From Actinomycetota bacterium (GTDB lineage Bacteria; Actinomycetota; Nitriliruptoria; Euzebyales; JAHELV01): DNA of 48,215 nt. The stretch spans positions 1 to 48,215 of the forward strand of contig JAHWKT010000005.1 in assembly GCA_019347695.1 (NCBI GenBank), written 5' to 3'. The position numbers were made by a program, and so were the translations under genes. The notes under the pieces were generated by a model, which was not told where the DNA came from, did not search any database, and worked only from the letters and a program-made list of their open reading frames with translations. This document shows positions 12,471-29,712 of this stretch, piece by piece. How positions within the stretch are numbered: the stretch's first letter is position 1; the number at the start of each line of letters is the position of its first letter.

Positions 12471-12830
12471 CGACGCGGGCCAGCGTGTCGAGCGGCATCG
12501 TCAGGACCAAGCAGGCGCTGTCGGTCCGTACGGTCGCTGTCGCGCGCCCCGGCGGCCGCAACCCCGACCACCCGAAGATCCGCCCAGGCTGGTCCGTCGT
12601 CTCGACGACCAGGTCCCCAACGCCAGCGAACTCGACCAACGTGGCGATCGTGCCGCTGACGAGCACGACGAGCTCAAACGTCACCGCCCGTTGGCGCAGC
12701 AGAATCTCACCCTGGGCCACGTCGTGCGGCGTGAGCTGCCCCTGCACGTGTGCGAGCAGATCGTCGGGCAGCGTCACCGCGCCCGGGATGAGCGCTGTCA
12801 GTGACAGCACGGCGGACGGCTCGTGGAGCA
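12460..12830 (-). pseudogene. Cyclic-nucleotide-binding domain protein fragment
   Basis: GEILLRQ...LVSG...PGRIFGWSGL...RATATV; collides tail-to-tail with the esterase remnant. Confidence 0.65.
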
Positions 12831-12865
12831 TCCGGTGATCGTGTCCCGCCAACGACCCTGCGGGC

Positions 12866-12881
12866 AAGGACCTTCGGCCCT
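12866..12881 (+). promoter_or_regulatory. DosR/DevR-like box
   Basis: AAGGACCTTCGGCCCT resembles GGGACn4GnCCC; 50 bp upstream of a PNPOx-family gene. Confidence 0.5.
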
Positions 12882-12930
12882 GTCGCGTTGCCCCGATTGT
12901 GCGACGCTCGCGTCCGTCAGGGAGACGCCG

Positions 12931-13340
12931 ATGTCCGAGACCGAGATCGCGCTGGTGACGCTGTCACCCGACGAGTGCCGCGCCCTGCTGGTCACCCACC
13001 GCCCCCGGCTGGGCCGACTGGTGTTCGTCGACGACGGTTGGCCGCTGGCGTTGCCCATGAACTTCGCGGTGCGCGATGAAGCCATCTACTTCCGGACCGC
13101 GCCGGGCGCAAGCTCGACGCCGCCCTCCGCGCCGACCGGGTGGCGTTCGAGCTCGACGACGTCGACGAGGTCTGGGAGGACGGGTGGAGCCTGCTGGCGT
13201 TCGGGCGTCTGCAGGTCGTCACCGACCCCGACGAGCTCGCCGAGGCGCGCCGCCTGCCACCACGACCGTGGGCGGCGGGTGACACGCCCTACCACCTGCG
13301 CATGGACATCGAGAGCCTGTCGGGGCGACGCATCACCTGA
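12931..13340 (+). pseudogene. Pyridoxamine 5'-phosphate oxidase-like protein (frameshifted near 13105)
   Basis: LSPDECRALL, GRLVF, PMNF, FRTAPG, then VAFELD, GWSL, SGRRI in the next frame. Confidence 0.85.
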
Positions 13341-13401
13341 CGCACCGACCACCTGCGCGGTTTCGGTAAAGGTCGCGTCGCGGCGGCCGACGAGCGTCGC
13401 C

Positions 13402-13701
13402 ATGATCACCAAGCGCTTCTTCAAGACCCGCGACGACGTCGAGGTCACCTTCCAGATCGACGCCCACGGCGCCGAGTCGGCCGCACTGGTCGCCGACATC
13501 CACGACTGGCGGCCGCAGCCCATGACCCGCTCGGCCCGCGGCCGCGGGCCGTTCAGGCTGAAGCTCCGCGTCCCCAGAGACGGGTCGATCCAGTTCCGCT
13601 ACCTGCTCGACGGCGTCAGGTGGGAGAACGACGACGCCGCAGACGCCTACTGGCCGAACGCACTCGGCACGGACAACAGCGTGGTCGTCTTCGGCGGCTG
13701 A
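13402..13701 (+). CDS. Isoamylase early-set/CBM48-like glycogen-binding protein
   Basis: MITKRFFKT, VTF, FRYLLDG, WENDDAAD, NSVV; 99 aa. Confidence 0.88.
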   Translation: MITKRFFKTRDDVEVTFQIDAHGAESAALVADIHDWRPQPMTRSARGRGPFRLKLRVPRDGSIQFRYLLDGVRWENDDAADAYWPNALGTDNSVVVFGG

Positions 13702-13729: not shown

Positions 13730-13764
13730 GGACGTCCACCGTGCACATGACACGGTGGGCGTCC
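13730..13764 (+). terminator. 14-bp hairpin downstream of the CBM48 gene
   Basis: GGACGTCCACCGTG-N7-CACGGTGGGCGTCC with one G:U pair. Confidence 0.6.
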
Positions 13765-13835
13765 ACGACAGCGACGCCGACCATTGCCCGCCTGTGCTCG
13801 GTCGCAGGCGGAACGGCAAGCGTCCCGCCGACAGC

Positions 13836-13849
13836 GAGACCTTGGCCCC
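13836..13849 (+). promoter_or_regulatory. Second DosR/DevR-like box
   Basis: GAGACCTTGGCCCC upstream of the ppsA remnant. Confidence 0.35.
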
Positions 13850-13929
13850 ACCGGGTGGGTGGCATGGTCGGTCATGGTGCGGACGTGGGCGAACGCCCGC
13901 CTCAGACGACGCCGACTGGAGCAGCGGCC

Positions 13930-14530
13930 GTGGTAACACTCGAGCAGCGGGCAACCGACCAGATCATGTGGTTCTCGCAGGTTGACACCGAGGATGTCGG
14001 TCTCGTGGGCGGCAAAGGAGCCAACCTGGGCGAGCTCACGGGTGCCGGCTTCCCCGTACCCGACGGCTTCGTGGTCACCGCGGCGGCCTATCTGGCGGCG
14101 ATGGAGCGCGGCGGGGTGCGGGATCGTCTGCGCGAGGTCGCCGCCGGCGTGATGTCCCCGACCCGGACGCGCTCGCCCAGGCGTCTGGAGCAGCGCAGCA
14201 GTTGGTGCGCTGCTCCGGTACGCCAGAACAGCTGCGCGAGGAGATCGTCTCCGGCTACCGGAAGCTCGGCGACGACGTCGCCGTCGACGTCGCCGTCCGC
14301 TCGTCGGCGACGAGCGAGGACACCGCCGGCACGTCGTTCGCCGGGATGAACGGGACCTTCACCAACGTCGTCGGGCCGGACCAGCTGGTCAGCCGTGTGA
14401 TCGACTGCTGGGCGTCCGCTATGGTCAGCGCGTGATCGCCTACCGAGACCGGCACGGCATGGACGAGGAGCCCGCGATCGCGGTCGTCGTCCAACGGATG
14501 GTCGACAGTGAACGGTCCGGCGTCCTGTGA
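13930..14530 (+). pseudogene. ppsA: PEP synthase N-terminal fragment
   Basis: VGGKGANLGEL, PVPDGF, VAVRSSATSED, SFAG, IAVVVQRMV; several frameshifts, truncated. Confidence 0.88.
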
Positions 14531-16313: not shown

Positions 16314-16835
16314 TCACGTGTCCTGCTCCGGGCCGGTCGCGGACGCATCCCGCTCGTCGACCTGCTCCTCGGCTCCGGATGACGCGTCGTCGGCGGGGCC
16401 GGACACGGGCTGATCGAGCGGGTTGATCCACCGGACGTCGAAGAACCGGGCGAAGTCGGCGTCGGCGGAGACCACTGCGACCCCGTGATCGATCGCGAGC
16501 GCGGCAAGCGCCGCATCGGTCACCAGTGGCCCGCGGACCCGGTGGTTGCGCACCAGGCGGCCGAGCACGCCCGCGTACGCGGCGGTGGGCTGAGGCACCC
16601 ACGCACGCGGTGCGGCAAGCCAGTCTTCGACCTGCTGCCACGCGACCTCGGGCTCCAGCGGTTCGGCGAACGCGCGCGGGTTCGTGGCGATGCGCAAGAA
16701 CGCGGCGACGGTCTGCCAGGGGAATCCCACCCTGGTCGAGCCGTTGAGCGCATCGACCAACCATGTGCGCGCTCGGTCATGATGCGGATCGTCGGAGTTG
16801 CGGGCGTACAGCAGGATGTTCGCGTCGAGCAGCAT
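16314..16835 (-). CDS. vapC: VapC PIN-domain toxin with acidic C-terminal tail
   Basis: LLDANILLYA, FLRIATNP, VTDAALAALA, SADADF, WINP. Confidence 0.93.
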   Translation of the reverse strand: MLLDANILLYARNSDDPHHDRARTWLVDALNGSTRVGFPWQTVAAFLRIATNPRAFAEPLEPEVAWQQVEDWLAAPRAWVPQPTAAYAGVLGRLVRNHRVRGPLVTDAALAALAIDHGVAVVSADADFARFFDVRWINPLDQPVSGPADDASSGAEEQVDERDASATGPEQDT

Positions 16836-17071
16836 CAGCCGTGTGCGTCGCCCTCCAGAATCGCGAGCGTCTCCTCGATGTCGTCGAGCGGCAGGCGCGG
16901 GCGCCCCATAGCTGAGACGTTCTGGTGAAACGGTCGCGGTTCCGCCTCGGACCGCGCGAGTCCTCGCCGTGCCAGGGCGTTGACTATTTCGCTCACACCA
17001 ACGCCTCGCTCTCGCCGCGCCTCTTCCACGGCGCGCGCGACATCAGCGTCCAGAGTGATGGTCGTCCTCAT
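16835..17071 (-). CDS. vapB: VapB-type RHH antitoxin
   Basis: MRTTITLDADV...SEIVNALARRG; TGATG overlap with vapC. Confidence 0.88.
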   Translation of the reverse strand: MRTTITLDADVARAVEEARRERGVGVSEIVNALARRGLARSEAEPRPFHQNVSAMGRPRLPLDDIEETLAILEGDAHG

Positions 17072-17097
17072 GCACATAGCCTAGCATCACGATGCAC
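17072..17097 (-). promoter_or_regulatory. Leaderless promoter and operator of vapBC
   Basis: TAGGCT-N6-ATG; GCATC-ac-GATGC palindrome next to the -10 box. Confidence 0.6.
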
Positions 17098-17181
17098 GGC
17101 CGCGTCCAGAGGATCTCTGCATCGTCGGCAACGAACTCGACGTGCCGCGCGGTCTTGACACGCGAGCCAGAACTCGATAGA

Positions 17182-17199
17182 TTCGGTCGATCGACCGAA
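17182..17199. promoter_or_regulatory. Putative TetR operator, copy 1
   Basis: Perfect 18-bp palindrome TTCGGTCGATCGACCGAA 8 bp upstream of tetR; core repeated at 20685. Confidence 0.85.
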
Positions 17200-17207
17200 C
17201 AAATTGC

Positions 17208-17834
17208 ATGAGTGGAGTGGCGATCGCTCGACGACCAGAATCCAGTGACACGGCGGAGCGGATACTCGCCGCAGCCAAGCACGCGTTGCTCGAGTCCGGC
17301 TACGGGGCGTTGTCGACGCGCGGCATCGCCGACCAGGCCGGTGTGCCGCTGAGCCAGATCCACTACCACTTCGGGTCCAAGCGACAGCTCGTTCTTGCAC
17401 TGCTGGAGGCCGAGAACGAGCGGCGGTTGGCGCGGCAGGCGGCGATGTACGCCGCCGACCAGCCGCTGTGGAAGCAGTGGGAGCAGGCCTGTGACTTCCT
17501 CGAGGACGATGTGGCCTCGGGCTATGTCCGCGTGCTGCAGGAGATGACCGCCGCCGGTTGGTCCGACGATGCGGTGGAGACCGCGGTCCGGGCGTATCTC
17601 CGGGGCTGGTTCCGGCTGCTGACCGGTGTCACGGAGGAGTTCGCGAACGACGTGGGTGGGCTCGGGCCGTTCGAGCCCAAGGAGGTCGCGACGCTGGTCG
17701 GCGTCGCCTTCCTCGGGGCCGAGACGATGATCCTGCTCGGCGTGAGCGAGGAGGAGATGCCCAACCGGTCTGCGCTGCGCAAGGTCGGAGCACTGATTCG
17801 GGCGATCGAGGAGCGCGACGGCGAGGAGCGATGA
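17208..17834 (+). CDS. TetR/AcrR family regulator
   Basis: ERILAAA...GYGALSTRGIADQAGVPLSQIHYHFGSK HTH. Confidence 0.95.
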   Translation: MSGVAIARRPESSDTAERILAAAKHALLESGYGALSTRGIADQAGVPLSQIHYHFGSKRQLVLALLEAENERRLARQAAMYAADQPLWKQWEQACDFLEDDVASGYVRVLQEMTAAGWSDDAVETAVRAYLRGWFRLLTGVTEEFANDVGGLGPFEPKEVATLVGVAFLGAETMILLGVSEEEMPNRSALRKVGALIRAIEERDGEER

Positions 17835-18706
17835 TCATGAGAGCGCGATTGCCTGACGTCGAGGGTCACGTCGACCGCGACGGTGTCGAGATCGGCTACG
17901 AGGTCCACGGCAACGGCGCGCCGACGCTCCTGTTGCTTCCGGCGTGGACGATCGTGCACAGCCGGTTGTGGAAGGGGCAAGTCCCGTACCTCGCGCGCCG
18001 CCATCGCGTGGTGGTCTTCGACGGGCCGGGCAACGGCCGCTCCGACCGCCCCCAGGATCCGGATCCCTACGGGCACGAGGCGGTCGCCGCGGCCGCGATC
18101 GACGTCATGGACGCCATCGGTACCGACGCGGTGGTGCTGGTCTCCCTGTCGAAGGGTGCCAACTGGTCGCTGAAGCTCGCGGTCGATCATCCCGAGCACG
18201 TGCTCGGGCAGGTGTTCATCGCTCCGTCGGTCCCCTTGGCGCCGCCTAGCGGGGCCAGAGCGAGAAGCGTCGACACGTTCTACGACGAACTCGAGGACCC
18301 GCAGGGCTGGGAGAAGAACAACGCCCACTACTGGCTGCGTCACTACGAGGACTTCGCCGAGTTCTTCTTCTCGCAGTGCTTCCCCGAGCCTCACTCGACC
18401 AAGCAACGTGAGGACACCGTCGGGTGGGCGCTGGAGACGAAACCGGAGGTGCTGCTGGCCGACGCGATGGCCGGCATGCCCGACCGCGACACCGTGCTGG
18501 GGTGGTGCGCCCGCGTCGACAGCCCGGTGCTGGTCATCCACGGCAGCGAGGACCGCATCAGCCCCTTGTCCCGCGCAGAGGCGCTGACCGAGGCCACCGG
18601 CGGGGAGCTCGTCGTCCTGCAAGGCTCCGGCCACATCCCGCTCGCGCGGGATCCCGTCAAGGTCAACCTGGCGCTGCGTGACTTCGTCGATCGTGTGGCG
18701 TCATGA
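17831..18706 (+). CDS. Alpha/beta fold hydrolase
   Basis: FDGPGNGRS, SLSKG nucleophile elbow, IHGSED, GSGH; ATGA overlap. Confidence 0.92.
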   Translation: MIMRARLPDVEGHVDRDGVEIGYEVHGNGAPTLLLLPAWTIVHSRLWKGQVPYLARRHRVVVFDGPGNGRSDRPQDPDPYGHEAVAAAAIDVMDAIGTDAVVLVSLSKGANWSLKLAVDHPEHVLGQVFIAPSVPLAPPSGARARSVDTFYDELEDPQGWEKNNAHYWLRHYEDFAEFFFSQCFPEPHSTKQREDTVGWALETKPEVLLADAMAGMPDRDTVLGWCARVDSPVLVIHGSEDRISPLSRAEALTEATGGELVVLQGSGHIPLARDPVKVNLALRDFVDRVAS

Positions 18707-20640
18707 GAGCTCGCCAACCTGACCTGACGGGCGTCGTCGACCGCGACGGGGTGCCAATCTTCTACGAGGTGCACGGTGACGGAGAGCCAGCACTGCTGCT
18801 GATCCCGCCGTCGCCGATCACCCACTCGCGGATCTACAAGGCGTTGCTGCCTCACCTCGCCCGTCACCACCGTGTGGTCACGTTCGACGGACGGGGGAAC
18901 GGCCGATCGGGACGGCCCGTCGACGTCGAGGACCACACCCGGGCAGCCAACGTCGCCGACATCCTGGCCGTGCTCGATGCGACCGGGACCGCCGATGCGG
19001 TGTTGGTGACCCACTGCCACGCCGCCTGGTGGGCCGTGGAGACCATCGCCTCCCAACCCGACCGCGTGCGAGCGCTGGTCGCGATCGAACCTGGCGTTCC
19101 CTACCTCGGCTGGGCGCTGGAGTCCACCGGCGAGGTCCTGGCGGCCGCCGAGGAGGCACAGGACCTGGACCCACCGGGAAGGGAGCGCTTCGAGCAGCAG
19201 TGCCGTGACCTGGGTGTGCCCACGCTGGTCATCCACGGTGACCTCGACGTCTGCCAGCACGTCGACCGCGGCGCCGCGTTCGCCGAGCTGACCGGTGGCG
19301 ACCTCGTCGTCATCGAAGGCTCCGGCCACCTTGCCCTCGTCAGGGACCCGGTCGCCGTCAACCGCGCCATCATCCGCTTTGTCGATCGCATCACGGGAGC
19401 AGCCATGCGTCGTCACACCTGGACCCGCGGCATGCACCGCGAGCGCAAGGTCCTCTACCTGTCATCGCCCATCGGTCTGGGCCACGTCCGTCGCGACCTG
19501 GCCGTCGCCGAGCAGCTGCGTACGCGCCACCCCGACATCCGGGTCGAATGGCTCGCCCAACATCCCGTCACCACCGTGCTCGAGGCGGCCGGCGAGACCA
19601 TCCACCCGGCCAGCGACTGGCTCGCCTCCGAGTCCGGCCACATCGCGTCGGAGGCCGCGGGCCACGACCTGCACTGCTTCCAGGCGCTGCGGCGCATGGA
19701 CGAGATCCTGGTCACCAACTTCATGGTGTTCCAGGAGGTCGTCGAGGACGGGCTGTACGACCTGGTCATCGGCGACGAGGCGTGGGACGTTGACCACTTC
19801 TGGCACGAGAACCCCGAGCTCAAGCGCGGCTCGCACGTCTGGTTCACCGACTTCGTGGGCTACCTGCCGATGCCCGACGGCGGCGAGCGCGAGGCGTACC
19901 TGACGGCCGACTACAACGCCGAGAAGATCGAGCACATCGAGCGGTTCCCGCGGATCCGGGACCGCGCGATCTTCGTCGGCAACGCCCCCGACGTGGTTCC
20001 CGAGGTGTTCGGGCCCGACCTTCCCAAGATCACCGACTGGACGCAGGACCACTTCGACTTCTCCGGCTACATCACCGGGTTCACGCCTCCACCGCCCGAC
20101 GAGGCCGCGCAGTGGCGAGCCGAGCTGGGCTACGCCGACGACGAGAAGATCTGCATCGTCACCGTCGGTGGCTCCGGCGTCGGCGAGGACCTCCTGCACA
20201 AGGCGATCGCCGCGTACCCGATCGCCAAGCGAGCGGTTCCGGAGCTGCGCATGGTCGTCGTCGCCGGGCCCCGCATCGATCCGCAACGTCTTCCCCGGTA
20301 TCCCGGGTTGGAGGTGCATGGGTACGTCGAGCGCCTCTACCGGCACCTGTGCGTGTGCGACCTCGCCGTCGTGCAGGGCGGTCTGACCACCACCATGGAG
20401 CTGACAGCGGCGCGCCGGCCCTTCCTCTACTTTCCGCTGGGCCACCACTTCGAGCAGACCTACCACGTCCGCCACCGGCTCGATCAGTACGGCGCCGGGG
20501 TGCACATGGACTACGTGGCAACCGATCCCGACGGACTCGCCGCGGCGATCACGGCCGAGATCGGTCGCGCTGTCGACTACCGGCCGGTGGAGACCGACGG
20601 CGCCGAGCGCGCGGCCGCCATGATCGCCGAGTTGATCTAG
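18703..20640 (+). CDS. Alpha/beta hydrolase fused to a GT-B glycosyltransferase (GT28/UDP-GT-like)
   Basis: N-terminus paralogous to the upstream hydrolase (FDGRGNGRS, IHGD, GSGH); C-terminus SPIGLGH, TVGGSG, DLAVVQGGLTTTME, HFEQ. Confidence 0.9.
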   Translation: MRARQPDLTGVVDRDGVPIFYEVHGDGEPALLLIPPSPITHSRIYKALLPHLARHHRVVTFDGRGNGRSGRPVDVEDHTRAANVADILAVLDATGTADAVLVTHCHAAWWAVETIASQPDRVRALVAIEPGVPYLGWALESTGEVLAAAEEAQDLDPPGRERFEQQCRDLGVPTLVIHGDLDVCQHVDRGAAFAELTGGDLVVIEGSGHLALVRDPVAVNRAIIRFVDRITGAAMRRHTWTRGMHRERKVLYLSSPIGLGHVRRDLAVAEQLRTRHPDIRVEWLAQHPVTTVLEAAGETIHPASDWLASESGHIASEAAGHDLHCFQALRRMDEILVTNFMVFQEVVEDGLYDLVIGDEAWDVDHFWHENPELKRGSHVWFTDFVGYLPMPDGGEREAYLTADYNAEKIEHIERFPRIRDRAIFVGNAPDVVPEVFGPDLPKITDWTQDHFDFSGYITGFTPPPPDEAAQWRAELGYADDEKICIVTVGGSGVGEDLLHKAIAAYPIAKRAVPELRMVVVAGPRIDPQRLPRYPGLEVHGYVERLYRHLCVCDLAVVQGGLTTTMELTAARRPFLYFPLGHHFEQTYHVRHRLDQYGAGVHMDYVATDPDGLAAAITAEIGRAVDYRPVETDGAERAAAMIAELI

Positions 20641-20684
20641 CCACAGCCGACGCGAGAGAGAGGAGCAGCCGCTTGTTCCGAAAA

Positions 20685-20700
20685 TCGGTCGATCGACCGA
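20685..20700. promoter_or_regulatory. Putative TetR operator, copy 2
   Basis: Perfect 16-bp palindrome TCGGTCGATCGACCGA, identical to 17183-17198, 27 bp upstream of the OsmC gene. Confidence 0.85.
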
Positions 20701-20727
20701 CCAGGTACGAATCACGGGAGAGATGAC

Positions 20728-21306
20728 ATGAGTTCTGCAACCACGACCCAGGCGCGTCGCCCCCTCAACGGCGTGGACGTGCCGACCCTGTTCGCGACCA
20801 TCGACGCCGTCAAGGCCCAGCCCGAGGCCGCCCGGTTCCAGTTCCGGGCCGTCAACCGGTGGATCAGTGGTACCCACAGTCGCACGACCATCCACGGGTT
20901 CTTCGGCGTCGGTCAACAGCTGCAGCACAAGGCTGAGCACACCTATGACGCCGACCATCCCGAGGTGCTGGTCGGCACCGACCAAGCACCGAGTCCGGTG
21001 GAGTTCATTCTCCACGGCTTGGCGGCCTGCCTGACCGCTGGTATCGGCAACATCGCGGCCGCCCGTGGCATCGAGCTGACGGAGGTCGAATCCCGCGTGG
21101 AGGGCGACATCGACCTGCGCGGGTTGCTGGGGCTGTCCGACGAGATCCGCAACGGCTACGAGCAGATCCGGGTGAGCTTCCGGATCGCCGGCGATGCGAC
21201 CGAGGAGCAACTCCGCGCCGTGGTTGAGCAGTCACGCGCCCGATCGGCGGTATTCGACATCGTCACCAACGGCGTGCCGGTCGACGTCAGCGTGGAGACC
21301 GCGTGA
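20728..21306 (+). CDS. OsmC/Ohr-fold protein (single Cys)
   Basis: NGVDV, DHPEVLVG...PSPVEFILHGLAACL, VEGDIDLRG, RSAVFD. Confidence 0.9.
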   Translation: MSSATTTQARRPLNGVDVPTLFATIDAVKAQPEAARFQFRAVNRWISGTHSRTTIHGFFGVGQQLQHKAEHTYDADHPEVLVGTDQAPSPVEFILHGLAACLTAGIGNIAAARGIELTEVESRVEGDIDLRGLLGLSDEIRNGYEQIRVSFRIAGDATEEQLRAVVEQSRARSAVFDIVTNGVPVDVSVETA

Positions 21307-21379
21307 GGGAGAACCAGTCCAAAGCGGTCGGTCCCGGCACGCCGGGATCGACCGCTCCCACCACGGCGAGGTGACCTGG

Positions 21380-22540
21380 ATGGCTGACCACGACGTGATC
21401 ATCGTCGGTGCCCGCGCCGCCGGAGCCAGCACGGCACTGCTGCTCGCGCGCGCCGGATGGCGCGTGCTGGTCGTCGACCGCGCGCGGCGCGGCAGCGACA
21501 CGCTGTCGACGCACGCGCTGATGCGACCGGGCGTGCTCCAACTTCAGCGGTGGGGGCTGCTCGACGCCATCATTGCCGCCGGCACCCCTGGCCAGGACCG
21601 TGTGGTCTTCCACTACGGCGACGACCGCGTCGACCTCGAACTGTCGTCGCGGCTGTACGCGCCGCGGCGCACCGTCCTCGACCCGGTGCTGGTAGCGGCC
21701 GCCGAGGACAGCGGCGCGGTGGTGCGCTTCGGCGTCGACGTCCGCGGTCTGTTGCGCGACCCCGACGGGCGTGTCACCGGGATCCGCGTGCGTGACAGGC
21801 ACGGCCGTACGATCGAGCTGCGCAGTCGGATGACGGTGGGAGCGGACGGTCGACGATCGCTGGTGGCTCGCGACGTCGACGCCGAGGTAACCCGCCGCGG
21901 TGCCAACGCGGCCGCCGCGATGTACGGCTACTGGACCGGTGTCGAGACCGCAGGCTACGAGTGGGGCTTTCGGCCGGGCCGCAGCGCCGGGCTCATCCCC
22001 ACCGGCGACGCGCGGGTGTGCGTGTACGCCGGCATGCCGCCCCAGCGGTTCGCGCACGAGGTGCGCTACGACCCCGAAGGCGGGCTGCACCGCGTGCTGG
22101 CGGAGACCACGCCCAGCGTCGCCGAGCGGGTCGCGGCCGGACAGCGCGTCGAACCCGTCAGAGGATTCCCTGGCATGCCAGGCTGGCTGCGCCGACCGTG
22201 GGGTCCGGGCTGGGCGCTCGTCGGCGACGCCGGCTACTTCAAGGACCCGATCACCGCCCATGGCATCACCGACGCGCTGCGCGACGCCGAACTGCTCGCC
22301 CGGGCACTCGACCGCCTGCTGCGAGGCGACGTCGAACCGGCAGACGCGCTGGCCGACTACGAGCGCAGGCGCGACGCCCTGTCCATCCCGCTGCTCGAGA
22401 TCACCGATGCCGTCGCCAGCTTTGCCTGGACACTGCCCGAGGTGCAGCGGCTGCATCTGAAGATGAGCGACGCCATGCAGCAGGAGGTCGACGCGCTGAC
22501 CGAGCTCGACCCCCTGGTCGCACGCCCGGTGGCCGCATGA
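21380..22540 (+). CDS. FAD-dependent oxidoreductase (geranylgeranyl reductase/monooxygenase-like)
   Basis: VIIVGARAAG, GADGRRS, GWALVGDAG, DPITAHGI. Confidence 0.92.
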   Translation: MADHDVIIVGARAAGASTALLLARAGWRVLVVDRARRGSDTLSTHALMRPGVLQLQRWGLLDAIIAAGTPGQDRVVFHYGDDRVDLELSSRLYAPRRTVLDPVLVAAAEDSGAVVRFGVDVRGLLRDPDGRVTGIRVRDRHGRTIELRSRMTVGADGRRSLVARDVDAEVTRRGANAAAAMYGYWTGVETAGYEWGFRPGRSAGLIPTGDARVCVYAGMPPQRFAHEVRYDPEGGLHRVLAETTPSVAERVAAGQRVEPVRGFPGMPGWLRRPWGPGWALVGDAGYFKDPITAHGITDALRDAELLARALDRLLRGDVEPADALADYERRRDALSIPLLEITDAVASFAWTLPEVQRLHLKMSDAMQQEVDALTELDPLVARPVAA

Positions 22541-22577
22541 CACCTCGAATACCGGAGGTCGCGGTTGCGTCGTCGGA

Positions 22578-22758
22578 TCACGTACCGCTCGGCCTCGGCT
22601 CGTCGATCCGGAACCCGTCGAAGGACGGTTCCAACCGCACCGCTTCGACGACGTGCAACTGATCACGTGCAGCGCGTTCACCGACTGTTGCGCTGCAGCG
22701 CAACCATCCGCGCCCGCTTCAGCAGGTGATCATCGACCGTCACCGTAAGGTTCGCCAT
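22578..22758 (-). pseudogene. Collapsed TA relic: RHH antitoxin N-terminus and a possible PIN toxin tail
   Basis: MANLTVTVDDHLLKRARMVALQ, frameshift into SVNAL, then FDGFRIDEP resembling PIN-toxin ends. Confidence 0.55.
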
Positions 22759-22810
22759 GGCCGGTGTTCCGCGCAACCCGTGTAGCACAGTTGCCCGAGA
22801 GGGACGGCAG

Positions 22811-24493
22811 CTACTGCAGTGGCACGCTGCCGTCGTGGGCGTGGGCCTGCGAGTGGACGGTGAGCAGCTGCGCGTCGATCGCGTCGCGGTCGACGTCGAC
22901 GATGTCCAGGCCCACGAGATGGCGCGTGACCGGGCAGCCCTCACGATCGAACGCCTGCGCAGCCGTCAGCGCTGCGGCGGTGTCCGCATCGATCCGCCCG
23001 TGCTGCGCGAGATGCTCGTCCCAGTCGGCGACCGTGAACATCTCGGTGATCCGGTACGGGCGGTCCGCGTCGCGGTACAGCGACCAGCGTCGCGCACCGG
23101 TGCGGAACCGCTCGCGCCGCAGCACGCGCAGCGCTGCGAGGAATGCGTCCAGATCTTCTGGATCGATCTGCCACGTCGTGGCGACCACGACCGGGGACCC
23201 GGCCACCCGTGTGGCGTGCTGGGGCACGGAGAAGTCGTCGGGCGGCGGCAGCGGCTCGGCGACCTCGCCCAGCACCGGCAGGGTCAGCCGCGACGCGACG
23301 ACCCCCAGCATCGCGGTCGCCGCACACGCGACAGCCACGGCGCGACCCGCACCGACACCCTCGGCCAGCGCGCCGGCGACCACCGCACCCAGCGGCTGCA
23401 ACGCGATCGCCAACAGATACAGCGACACGACCCGGCCGCGAACCCAACCCGGCGCCAGCGTCTGGATCGTGGCGTTGAGTGTCGTCAACGTCCATACCCA
23501 CGCCGCACCCGCGACCGCCAACGTCGCCGCGCTGACCACCGGCCACGGCGACAGCCCGAACACCACGCCCATCGCGCCGAACGCCACGATCGACCCGGGC
23601 AGCATCCGCTGGCCCAGCACGCGACGGGCCGGCTCCCTCGTAAAGGCAGCTACCAGGGCGCCGGCGCCGAACGCGCCGTAGAGGAACCCGAACCCACTCG
23701 GCCCGAGCGCCAGGTCGTCGCTGACCACGTTCGGCAGCAACGCCTGCACACTCGTCGCCGTCACAGCGAACGCTGCCGCGATCACCAGCAACACCCGGAT
23801 CGGCTGGGTGAACCGCGCGTAACGCACGCCGGTCGCCGCCGCGCGCCACAGCCGCCGGCCCGCGTCGTCTTCCACCCGCTGTCGCGGGAACGACAGCAGC
23901 ACGGCCACGACCGCGAGGAACGACACCGCGTTCGCGCCGAACGCGACAGCGGTCAGACCGGCGGCGACCAGCACCCCGCCAAGCGACGGGCCGACCGCGC
24001 GCGCCACGTTGAACGCCGCGGAGTTCAACGTGATCGCCTGGGCACGAAGCCGTGGGCCAACCAGATCCGGAACTAGTGTCTGGAACGCCGGCAGGTGCAC
24101 CGCGGTACCCGTGCCCAGCACGAACGACAGCCCGAGCAGCCAGGCAGGCGTGATCGTCCCGGCGTAGGTCATGGCAGCCATCGTCGCGACCGCCGAGGCG
24201 GAGATGAGCTGGCCGGTGATCATCAATGTCCGCCGGTCGAACGCATCGCTCAACACGCCGGCCGGCACCGTGAACAACAGCCGCGGCAGCGTCAGCGCGG
24301 TCGTGACCAGCGCGACCAACAACGGCGACCCGGTCAACTCGTTCATCAACCACGGCGCCGCCGTGAGCTGCAGGAACGTGCCGACATTGCTGACGATCGC
24401 CGCCGACCACACCCGCCGGTACTCGGGCACGGCCAACGGCTCCATCGCGCCGACAGGACCGACCACGCTGGGAGGAGTCGACGCACCGGTCAT
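22811..24493 (-). CDS. MFS transporter (MFS_3/DUF894 type) with C-terminal ABM-like domain
   Basis: AGVLSDAFDRR, LNSAAFNVARAVGP, about 12 TM segments; C-terminal GARRWSLYRD...WDEHLAQH; TAGCGT-N6-ATG. Confidence 0.92.
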   Translation of the reverse strand: MTGASTPPSVVGPVGAMEPLAVPEYRRVWSAAIVSNVGTFLQLTAAPWLMNELTGSPLLVALVTTALTLPRLLFTVPAGVLSDAFDRRTLMITGQLISASAVATMAAMTYAGTITPAWLLGLSFVLGTGTAVHLPAFQTLVPDLVGPRLRAQAITLNSAAFNVARAVGPSLGGVLVAAGLTAVAFGANAVSFLAVVAVLLSFPRQRVEDDAGRRLWRAAATGVRYARFTQPIRVLLVIAAAFAVTATSVQALLPNVVSDDLALGPSGFGFLYGAFGAGALVAAFTREPARRVLGQRMLPGSIVAFGAMGVVFGLSPWPVVSAATLAVAGAAWVWTLTTLNATIQTLAPGWVRGRVVSLYLLAIALQPLGAVVAGALAEGVGAGRAVAVACAATAMLGVVASRLTLPVLGEVAEPLPPPDDFSVPQHATRVAGSPVVVATTWQIDPEDLDAFLAALRVLRRERFRTGARRWSLYRDADRPYRITEMFTVADWDEHLAQHGRIDADTAAALTAAQAFDREGCPVTRHLVGLDIVDVDRDAIDAQLLTVHSQAHAHDGSVPLQ

Positions 24494-26753: not shown

Positions 26754-26954
26754 ATGCGCACCAACATCGACATCGATGAGCAGCTCCTCGCCGACGCACA
26801 AGCCATCGCCGGCACCGCCACCAAGAAGGCCACGGTCGAGCACGCCCTGCGAGAACTCGTCCGCCGCAAGGACCGACAGCGCATCCGAGAGCTACACGGC
26901 AGCGTCGAGTGGACCGGCGACCTCAACGAGTCCCGCAGCGGCCGACATCAGTGA
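26754..26954 (+). CDS. vapB: VapB antitoxin (MRTNI type)
   Basis: MRTNIDIDEQLL...TKKATVEHALREL...WTGDLNESR. Confidence 0.92.
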   Translation: MRTNIDIDEQLLADAQAIAGTATKKATVEHALRELVRRKDRQRIRELHGSVEWTGDLNESRSGRHQ

Positions 26955-27385
26955 TCGTCGTCGACACCACCGTCTGGATCGACTACTTCGCAGGCCGCGA
27001 CGAGAAGCCGCACGTCGGCGAACTGCAGCAGCTCGTGGACGCCGACGCCGGGATCGCACTCACTGACGTCATCCTGGGCGAGATCCTGCAGGGACTGCGC
27101 GGCGAGCACACCGTCCGGCGGGTCGATCAGCGACTGCAAGCGTTCGACATCCTGCGGCTGCGCACGCTCGACGACTTCCGCAACGCCGCTGCGCTGTACC
27201 GGCACGCCGGAAGCAAGGGCAAGACCATCCGCCGAACCCTGGACTGCCTCATCGCGACCGTATGCATCCGCGAGAGCTGCGCCATCCTCCACAACGACCG
27301 CGACTTCGACCACCTCGCCGACGTCACCGACCTCGTGGTGCACGCCGCGCCCCATTCCGGCGACCGGGGCGACCCCACACAATGA
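26951..27385 (+). CDS. vapC: VapC PIN-domain toxin
   Basis: IVVDTTVWIDY, EILQG, TIRRTLDCLIA, LHNDRDF; GTGA overlap. Confidence 0.94.
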   Translation: MIVVDTTVWIDYFAGRDEKPHVGELQQLVDADAGIALTDVILGEILQGLRGEHTVRRVDQRLQAFDILRLRTLDDFRNAAALYRHAGSKGKTIRRTLDCLIATVCIRESCAILHNDRDFDHLADVTDLVVHAAPHSGDRGDPTQ

Positions 27386-27409: not shown

Positions 27410-27975
27410 TCACGGGTCGCCAGGCCCGCGTCGACTCGTCACAAGCGCGGCGGCCATCTCTCGCGCCGAGCGCCATGCGTCGTCGACGTTGCTGACAGCC
27501 CCGGCGACGGTGGCGCCTTCCTCCAGGACGAGCAGGCGCTCGCCGAGCGCGCGGGGGTCGCTGGCGCCGGCATCCAACGCGAGGCGGGCGAACAGTTCAC
27601 GAATCCACTGCTTCTGGGCGGCAACAACCTGCCGGGCCGGGTGGTCTGGATCCGGGAGCTCGGCGAACGCGTTGATGAAGGCGCAGCCCCGGACGGCCTC
27701 GCGTCGCATCCAGACATCGCACGCGTCGAACACGGCGAGCAGGCGATCCGTGGCGGTGCCGTCGCAGCGCTCCAGCTCGTCGAGCAGCCAGGCACGCCGC
27801 CGTTCATCACGGTCACGCAGGTAGGCGGCGACGAGCTCGTCCTTGGAGCCGAAGTTGTTGTACAGCGTCATCTTCGAGACGTCGGTGCGCTCGACCAGCG
27901 TGTCGACGCCGACGGCGGGGATGCCGGCGCCGTAGAAGAGCTCGCCCAGACGCCCTGCAGCCCGCTGTACGGCCG
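27410..27975 (-). pseudogene. TetR family regulator with missing or degenerate N-terminus
   Basis: ELFYGAGIPAVGVDTL...SKMTLYNNFGSKDEL, RGCAFINA; no convincing start. Confidence 0.75.
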
Positions 27976-28165
27976 ACACATCAGTCCCGACCGCGAACTC
28001 GCGGCCGCACTTTCCGAGTAGACGGACTGGGTGGTCGAGCACACTGGGCGTCGAGCGTGCATCGCTCGGCGTATGAGGCTCCCGCATGCTGCGACGACAT
28101 CGGGGCACCGCTGCGTCGCCAACGCCGACCGCTGCGCCTGCGGCTGGCTGCGTTGGCGCTCCGGC

Positions 28166-29059: not shown

Positions 29060-29712
29060 ACGTTCGGCACGCTGGCGATCGTCGCCAACACTGCGACGCC
29101 GCCGGCATGCCCGGTCGTCAACGCGAGCAGCGCACCGATCGGGAGGAACGCGGCCACGACGACGGCCGACACTCCGCCGCCCGGCCGCCGTGGCGTCCGT
29201 CGGTCGACCGGCGACCAGCAGCCACGCGATCAGCGCGACGAGGACGGGCACGACCCATGCTCCCAGGCCAGCCCGCCAGCCTCCGGCGAGCCGCGCGATC
29301 GGAACCGTGGCCGCGGCGGCCGCAGCCGAGCCACCACCAGCGCCTTCGAGTACATCGCGGTCGCCCACTCGAGACGGTCCGCGAACCAACGTTTCACTGC
29401 CACCGGCAGCAGGACATTGCCGAGGGCTGCGCCGGCCACGGCGACGCCGGTGGCGACGAGCACCGCCGTCGGCCGCTGGATCAGCACCCGCGCGACGAGC
29501 CCCACCGCGAGCGCGCTGACGGCTGCGATGAACGTCGCCGCCAGACCGATGGCCGTCGCGGAGCTCACCCGGTCGTCGTCGGATCCGGTCGACTCCAGTT
29601 GACGTGCAACGGCAACGTCACGACCCCGGTCGCCCTTGACCACCGCAGGGTCGTCGACGTCGTCAGAGATCTCTGGCGGCACATCCCCACGCGATACCCG
29701 CGACTGGCTCAT
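29060..29712 (-). pseudogene. CynX-like cyanate permease (MFS) remnant
   Basis: GAALGNVLLPVAVKRWF, TAMYS, GGWRAGLGAW; frameshifted and truncated. Confidence 0.75.

Follow-up and report, generated by a model that had tools for sequence, protein, structure and literature searches.

Local TetR repressors that regulate their own genes are known from the macrolide phosphotransferase operon, with MphR(A), and from the lactonase QsdA, which is accompanied by QsdR. We describe a locus that appears to be built along these lines, at positions 17182-22540 of a 48,215-nucleotide stretch of DNA (hereafter the window; positions 1 to 48,215 of contig JAHWKT010000005.1, assembly GCA_019347695.1) from an Actinomycetota bacterium of the order Euzebyales. 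It contains a tetR gene, a gene for a stand-alone alpha/beta hydrolase, a gene for a fusion of an alpha/beta hydrolase with a glycosyltransferase, an osmC-like gene (osmC) and a flavoprotein gene. The features shared with MphR(A) and QsdR are a TetR_N domain in a nine-helix fold, a palindrome over the regulator's own promoter, and putatively regulated enzyme genes directly downstream. The locus differs in that its regulator matches no curated TetR subfamily and in that a second operator appears to recruit lineage-specific cargo. On balance, and with moderate confidence, we predict a TetR regulon with two operators and a core of tetR and the fusion gene, in which a ligand would release the repressor, an ester or lactone would be cleaved and then glycosylated, and the remaining genes would be cargo of the lineage.

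A reading made earlier from the letters of the window, without database searches (the sequence-only reading), pointed to the same perfect palindrome before tetR and before osmC, and both copies are present where it placed them. The 16-bp sequence TCGGTCGATCGACCGA lies at 17183-17198 as the core of an 18-bp palindrome, TTCGGTCGATCGACCGAA (operator 1, 17182-17199), and is repeated exactly at 20685-20700 (operator 2); neither site is assigned a strand. There are no other exact copies of the 16-mer in the window and none in 100 dinucleotide-preserving shuffles of it. The same two sites are the only exact copies in the whole assembly (3.48 Mb in 215 contigs, 87.7% complete). Operator 1 ends 9 bases before the tetR ATG (17208). 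Operator 2 starts 45 bases past the stop codon of the fusion gene and ends 27 bases before the osmC ATG (20728).

The only sigma-70-like site in 16900-22900 is found at operator 1 (17155-17183, + strand), where TTGACA (17155-17160) and TAGATT (17178-17183) are separated by a 17-nucleotide spacer; 10 of 12 positions match, and 0.3 such sites are expected. The last base of the -10 box is the first base of the 16-mer, and the 18-bp palindrome begins within the box. Operator 1 therefore covers the expected transcription start, and a bound protein would sit there.

We scanned one genome per species and found 80 loci with relatives of the fusion, from Actinomycetota, Alpha-, Beta- and Gammaproteobacteria, SAR324, Chloroflexota and Eremiobacterota according to the record titles. 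Informative loci are the 69 with at least 800 bp of sequence upstream of the fusion, and TetR orthologues are defined by 40% identity or more. These counts come from tblastn; a separate all-against-all BLAST covered a filtered set of 1003 open reading frames (ORFs), with the tetR of the window outside the set. A TetR orthologue is encoded directly upstream of the fusion, on the same strand, at 51 of the 69 informative loci, and all 51 have either a palindrome like the 16-mer or a 14-bp variant of it before the transcription unit that contains tetR. The 16-mer is present with up to 3 mismatches within 250 bp upstream of the tetR start in 36 of the 51 (up to 1 mismatch in 32, exact in 18). Ten of the other 15, mostly Alphaproteobacteria, have the variant TTCG(T/G)TCGA(A/C/T)(C/T)GA(A/T), read by eye, and the remaining five have a 16-mer-like site farther upstream, before extra genes that precede tetR. 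Across eight aligned tetR upstream regions with a mean identity of 52%, the only invariant positions are TTGAC and 17 operator bases (8/8). In L011, the closest relative, both 16-mers are retained exactly, although its proteins are only 72-82% identical to those of the window.

These comparisons are strong evidence for the palindrome as a TetR operator, that is, as the predicted binding site of the regulator. They also lend good support to the sequence-only reading of the locus as a probable TetR regulon, as TetR and operator co-occur with the fusion across phyla and osmC is found with an operator in both of its gene arrangements (described below). The alternative that the palindromes arose by chance, or belong to a repeat scattered through a GC-rich genome, could draw on the abundance of TCGA-like units in 70.5% GC DNA and on a copy with 3 mismatches at 29196-29211. 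We consider it effectively refuted by the lack of exact copies in the shuffles, by the restriction of exact copies to two in the assembly, and by a position beside tetR that is conserved across distant phyla although the DNA around it is divergent.

Two candidates for a third operator were rejected. A copy with 1 mismatch on contig C53 lies inside an ORF of 711 amino acids, and the 29196-29211 copy is in a GC-rich stretch with no conserved partner nearby. The window also lacks any additional match to the 14-bp variant.

The loci with the 14-bp operator are L051, L055, L056, L059, L061, L065, L066, L067, L070 and L071. The variant adjoins a TTGA(C/T/A)T box and lies mostly in the spacer between TTGACT-like and TAAT-like boxes (by eye). 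At most of the ten loci it is located between the -35 and -10 boxes, in contrast to the actinobacterial form, which follows the -10 box. The actinobacterial 18-mer corresponds to the 14-base operator with one extra central TCGA, and the spacing of the half-sites thus differs by 4 bases within a single regulator family. A cultured bacterium, Deinococcus sp. QL22 (L100), has tetR and the fusion on a 669-kb plasmid (NZ_CP097150.1, 292469-295210), and in the record the fusion is split into two annotated genes, an alpha/beta hydrolase and a glycosyltransferase. The 16-mer has no match on this plasmid at up to 3 mismatches; a different palindrome, CGACAGAGTCTGTCG, is located about 105 bp ahead of the tetR gene.

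In L024 and L046 the cassette consists of only two genes, tetR and the fusion, amid unrelated genes. The fusion is found in 10 of 41 genomes of the same order (a tally that counts the window's own genome and takes in G034, an unpublished genome) and in one of four other genomes of the genus. The module is accessory and patchy. Three Cellulomonas loci (L004, L019 and L034) encode a fusion with a T-L-C-D-A elbow and have neither an adjacent tetR nor a stand-alone hydrolase; there the fusion adjoins a small GNAT-like ORF and a 548-amino-acid FAD-type ORF (labels by eye). Around the fusion in cultured Cellulomonas, Naasia and Actinomycetospora, gene content is not conserved and offers no hint of function.

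In 15 of the 75 loci with downstream sequence, a palindrome-like site also begins 47-140 bp beyond the end of the match to the fusion. What lies behind this second site varies: an OsmC-like gene with a flavoprotein gene, as in the window, in seven loci, a gene for an AurF-like di-iron oxygenase in five, and a gene for a secreted protein without a Pfam match in three. The flavoprotein gene follows osmC in seven related loci and is found further along the same strand in two more. Among the 12 loci with an osmC homologue, 10 have an operator site at most 178 bp upstream of it, and in the remaining two, other genes of the operon lie between the site and osmC. The osmC homologues of L018, L041 and L073 are divergent from tetR, and the shared intergenic region has two operator copies, one per gene. 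A DUF1326 and PpoB2 pair is encoded downstream of the fusion in several alphaproteobacterial loci.

Because the genes behind the second operator vary, we regard tetR and the fusion as the conserved core and the OsmC-like protein and flavoprotein as swappable additions. The neighborhood analysis that the sequence-only reading had proposed thus gives a divided answer: tetR, the fusion and the palindrome recur, and osmC and the flavoprotein gene are exchanged for other genes elsewhere. A single fixed pathway that hydrolyzes, oxidizes or reduces, and glycosylates one molecule, as first suggested, is not supported in that form, given that OsmC and the flavoprotein are only one of several alternative gene sets. 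Other genes occur ahead of tetR. L010 (4818-6218) and L074 have a full-length SBP56 gene (613 bits; selenium-binding protein family) and a membrane protein gene between an operator-like site and tetR, and L048 has a gene there for a methyltransferase with an Rv2258c-like winged helix domain.

Operator 2 could also be read as an internal auxiliary site, a roadblock or looping partner, with all five genes transcribed together from the tetR promoter. The gap between the fusion and osmC is only 87 bp, no terminator-like hairpin was found in it, and a consensus scan, limited to sigma-70-type hexamers, found none around operator 2. We think a single transcript rather improbable in view of L018, L041 and L073, where osmC is divergent from tetR, has its own operator copy and must therefore have its own promoter; the scan that favors one transcript is also restricted to one promoter type.

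The gene behind operator 2 (20728-21306, + strand) encodes a 192-amino-acid OsmC-like protein with a PF02566 domain (72 bits, cut-off 27.5). OsmC/Ohr peroxidases have two conserved catalytic cysteines. The window protein shares PF02566 with these thiol peroxidases and differs from them in having one cysteine and an N-terminal extension of about 80 residues. The single cysteine (Cys101) is invariant, and the second canonical position is serine in 13 of 13 sequences. Its best solved relative, 2opl (E 7e-46), is named only "hypothetical protein". The next gene (21380-22540, + strand) encodes an FAD-dependent, monooxygenase-like oxidoreductase of the FAD_binding_3 type (PF01494, 100 bits, residues 4-334). 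Its best relatives among solved structures are 6sw2 and 2x3n ("probable FAD-dependent monooxygenase"), with E 2e-18, followed by halogenases.

The regulator itself (tetR, 17208-17834, + strand) has 208 amino acids, with a PF00440 helix-turn-helix at residues 19-65 (45.8 bits, cut-off 24). The AlphaFold 2 model has a predicted local distance difference test (pLDDT) score of 92.5 and is all-helical, with nine helices. The listed Foldseek matches are all TetR-family regulators, with template modelling (TM) scores of 0.45-0.74 and E of about 1e-5 to 1e-4. The best curated subfamily, the ScbR-type gamma-butyrolactone receptor model NF041196, scores 45.5 bits, far from its cut-off of 150. One cysteine, Cys95, is invariant in 52 of 52 TetR orthologues, as are 19 other columns.

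NemR is a cysteine-based TetR regulator of E. coli that senses electrophiles and bleach. Its structure (4yze) appears at ranks 2-3 when the regulator of the window is searched by fold, with TM of about 0.7. By analogy, the TetR protein could be a thiol-based sensor of oxidants or electrophiles, with OsmC-like and flavin enzymes central to a stress-detoxification regulon. This is the main rival with respect to the signal. Besides the fold match and the invariant Cys95, the cargo is compatible with it, including two kinds of OsmC-like protein, Pyr_redox_3 and FAD_binding_3 flavoproteins, SBP56, and the DUF1326 and PpoB2 pair, as is the one cysteine retained in the OsmC-like protein. We nevertheless consider a thiol sensor unlikely. 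The cysteine may be structural, given the 19 equally invariant columns, and NemR is not set apart from the generic TetR matches. The likeness to NemR extends to the fold and a cysteine in the regulator, and the regulated genes differ: the universal partner is a hydrolase-glycosyltransferase, which is atypical of oxidant or electrophile defense, and redox cargo is found in a minority of loci only.

The stand-alone hydrolase (17831-18706, + strand) matches PF00561 (Abhydrolase_1, 77 bits). It has a serine nucleophile in S-L-S-K-G and Asp and His in invariant columns, as expected for an alpha/beta hydrolase. The ATGA overlaps that the sequence-only reading described as joining the first three genes are present, at 17831-17834 (tetR and hydrolase) and 18703-18706 (hydrolase and fusion). 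An alternative ATG at 17837, 2 bases past the tetR stop codon, may be the start of the hydrolase gene because homologues begin MRAR. Whichever start holds, tetR, hydrolase and fusion are predicted to be closely coupled in translation.

The fusion gene (18703-20640, + strand; 645 amino acids) encodes a second alpha/beta-hydrolase domain (about 18703-19400) and a glycosyltransferase domain of the GT-B fold (about 19405-20637). All five ORFs of the locus are uninterrupted and agree with the families named in the sequence-only reading. Its statement that the block has no frameshifts is correct to the letter; the third gene is not intact, with 61 lid residues gone from the fused hydrolase domain. 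This 61-codon deletion, at 19110/19111, includes nearly invariant residues, and the segment is kept in all 10 aligned fused homologues and in the stand-alone paralogue P0002. The 119 other homologues among the matches listed have 690-753 amino acids, mostly 706. A contig of the independent run X1 covers the deletion junction (18145-19893) with 0 differences and 0 gaps. The deletion is therefore not an artefact of the assembler of the metagenome-assembled genome, with the reservation that X1 may be the source sample. Placement of the gap in a DNA alignment over the 183-base deletion, made in a search for microhomology, is ambiguous.

The fused domain of the window also has an unusual nucleophile elbow, T-H-C-H-A, with cysteine at the nucleophile position. 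Fusions that stand alone nearly always have G-x-S-x-G. Of the 21 loci that encode a stand-alone serine hydrolase between tetR and the fusion, 18 have cysteine in the fused domain, mostly as A-H-C-H-A. In a FastTree phylogeny of 97 hydrolase domains (midpoint-rooted, read without support values), there is one cysteine clade, which includes the fused domain of the window. The stand-alone hydrolase of the window is sister to the serine domain that is fused directly to the glycosyltransferase in L011, and the fused serine domains of L015 and L026 fall within the stand-alone clade. This topology suggests repeated replacement of the cysteine-type domain, perhaps via recombination between tandem paralogues. 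The hydrolase domain would have been duplicated and the fused copy would have changed its nucleophile, after which it was either eroded, as in the window, or replaced by the serine copy, as in L011, L015 and L026. In these three loci (L011 7998-10151, L015 2609-4798, and L026) a serine domain of the stand-alone type is fused directly to the glycosyltransferase and the cysteine-type domain is gone.

Both hydrolase domains have an esterase, 5egn, as their best solved relative (E 1.7e-19 for the stand-alone and 1.4e-24 for the other). The enzyme of 5egn, Est816, degrades acyl-homoserine lactones according to the abstract of PMC5133562. EstT and EstX are in the list of hydrolase profile matches, with E of 1.2e-13 and 7.6e-10. 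The stand-alone hydrolase shares PF00561 and a Ser-Asp-His triad with Est816, PcaD, EstT and EstX. It differs in that the curated cut-offs are widely missed: the PcaD model for 3-oxoadipate enol-lactonase (TIGR02427) scores 68.3 bits against 255.85, and the macrolide esterase models score 45.6 against 420 (NF052610), 31.8 against 450 (NF041759, EstT) and 37.7 against 600 (NF033124, EstX). The fused copy of the window is further removed from these enzymes by its cysteine and missing lid.

The model of the glycosyltransferase domain has a pLDDT of 93.3 and two Rossmann-like halves, and its closest structures are in GT1. The best Foldseek matches are OleI (2iya), CalG1-4, YojK, SpnG and GtfD, with E of about 1e-12 to 3e-14 and TM of about 0.6; the top entries are 2iya, 3oth and 7vm0. 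VIA-align gives Z of 26.7 for CalG1, 26.4 for YojK, 25.5 for SpnG and 25.2 for YjiC, over 312-344 residues. MurG is close behind, at 23.9, and the type of acceptor is therefore not readable from the fold alone. The GT-B fold is shared across the whole domain with small-molecule glycosyltransferases of GT1 (the macrolide enzymes OleI 2iya and OleD 2iyf, CalG1-4, YojK and YjiC of B. subtilis, SpnG), whereas identity to them is only 14-20% and the window's domain is fused to an alpha/beta hydrolase. By sequence profile, PF04101 (Glyco_tran_28_C) is marginal at 25.6 bits (cut-off 22), and the macrolide glycosyltransferase model TIGR01426 (MGT) reaches 22.4 bits of the required 260. The 63 aligned glycosyltransferase domains have an invariant His in the N-terminal G-L-G-H and a conserved C-terminal GGLTTTMEL...FEQ. 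Proteins of 400-412 amino acids that consist of the glycosyltransferase only form separate clusters in the ESM Atlas.

The RhlA/RhlB pathway pairs an alpha/beta-hydrolase fold with a GT-B enzyme. The domain pair of the fusion resembles this, and the locus could by analogy encode biosynthesis, with an acyltransferase of the alpha/beta fold and the glycosyltransferase making a glycolipid or glycosylated signal and TetR gating its production. A cysteine nucleophile, as in the A-H-C-H-A clade, would suit acyl-thioester chemistry. We find such biosynthesis doubtful, and less likely than a redox signal. The ancestral and commonest form of the fused domain has the ordinary G-x-S-x-G serine, and the cysteine type has been repeatedly deleted or replaced. 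By fold, the glycosyltransferase domain best matches GT1 enzymes that act in tailoring or on xenobiotics. The only gene conserved nearby is tetR, with no conserved sugar-nucleotide, acyl-carrier or export genes, and the distribution is patchy (the 10 of 41 genomes above).

For the two-operator regulon that we favor, we infer binding, repression, induction and all of the chemistry from sequence features, conservation, domain families and folds. TetR most likely binds the 18-bp palindrome, and at its own promoter it would block RNA polymerase. Occupancy of operator 1 would shut off tetR, the serine hydrolase gene and the fusion gene, and occupancy of operator 2 would shut off osmC and the flavoprotein gene. 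Binding of a small ligand would free both sites of the repressor simultaneously. Cleavage of an ester or lactone bond is the likely role of the hydrolase. The GT1-like domain would then glycosylate the same molecule, which would be small and probably lipophilic, at one of its hydroxyls, perhaps the one exposed by cleavage. The outcome may be a xenobiotic, antibiotic or signal that is inactivated or tagged. The OsmC-like protein and flavoprotein would have joined the regulon in this lineage through an operator placed in front of their genes.

Several observations weigh against this model. At 18 of the 69 informative loci the fusion has no adjacent TetR orthologue, so the fusion enzyme does not strictly depend on that regulator. 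Operator 2, without sigma-70-like hexamers around it in the consensus scan, could act inside one long transcript. The fused hydrolase domain of the window has neither an intact lid nor a serine nucleophile, and because it is degenerate, any hydrolysis here must come from the separate serine hydrolase. None of the NCBIfam models that name a substrate reaches its cut-off. The cargo is varied (OsmC-like proteins, flavin enzymes, methyltransferases, SBP56, a copper-chaperone family), and taken with the invariant cysteine of TetR this means that a redox or thiol signal fits about as well as a classical ligand.

A bolder proposal, which we regard as a long shot, is a "sense, open, cap" cassette that has spread horizontally across phyla. 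TetR, with its invariant cysteine, would sense a lactone or ester signal or antibiotic, the serine hydrolase would open it, and the GT1-like domain would cap the freed hydroxyl, making inactivation irreversible; the second operator would serve as a docking point for redox or methylating enzymes of the lineage. If true, it would provide a new enzymatic logic for quenching of lactone signals or inactivation of macrolactone drugs, together with a ready-made regulator-operator pair.

The sequence-only reading recognized no characterized pathway with this gene set. We likewise found no NCBIfam equivalog cut-off reached and no literature on the system among the matches listed (titles and abstract openings); the operator core string GGTCGATCGACC retrieved only unrelated papers. 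The locus is apparently an uncharacterized instance of a familiar type of system and not a new kind of system. The fusion family is very large (at least 8000 protein matches) and its members have generic names among the matches listed; its pairing with a clearly defined regulator and an operator that hardly varies offers an experimental handle. An 18-base operator-reporter could serve for inducer screening, and the identity of an inducer would probably give a lead to the substrate. Should that substrate prove to be an antibiotic or a signaling lactone, the module would be a mobile means of inactivation, so far unrecognized, in bacteria of soil and sea. Evolution can also be seen in progress at this locus, with a second operator that lets lineages attach different genes to one regulon, and with a duplicated, fused enzyme domain in which the change of nucleophile comes first and erosion or replacement after.

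Outside the regulon, the window contains several genes of note. A gene for an MFS_3 transporter (22811-24493, - strand; 384 bits) is convergent with the end of the flavoprotein gene, and a second TetR gene (27410-28108, - strand) is unrelated to the tetR of the regulon; neither has a palindrome copy. The surroundings had been called a decaying region, and a spot-check gives this some support. Two upstream ORFs match about 50 profile positions each and may be gene fragments: 12823-13701 covers positions 2-48 of the 140 of Pyridox_ox_2, and 13741-14349 covers positions 2-52 of the 328 of PPDK_N. Directly upstream of the regulon is a VapBC-like toxin-antitoxin pair on the - strand, with a ribbon-helix-helix protein (16835-17077) and a PIN-domain protein (16314-16835), and a second PIN gene (26909-27385, + strand) is located 4.4 kb downstream of the regulon.

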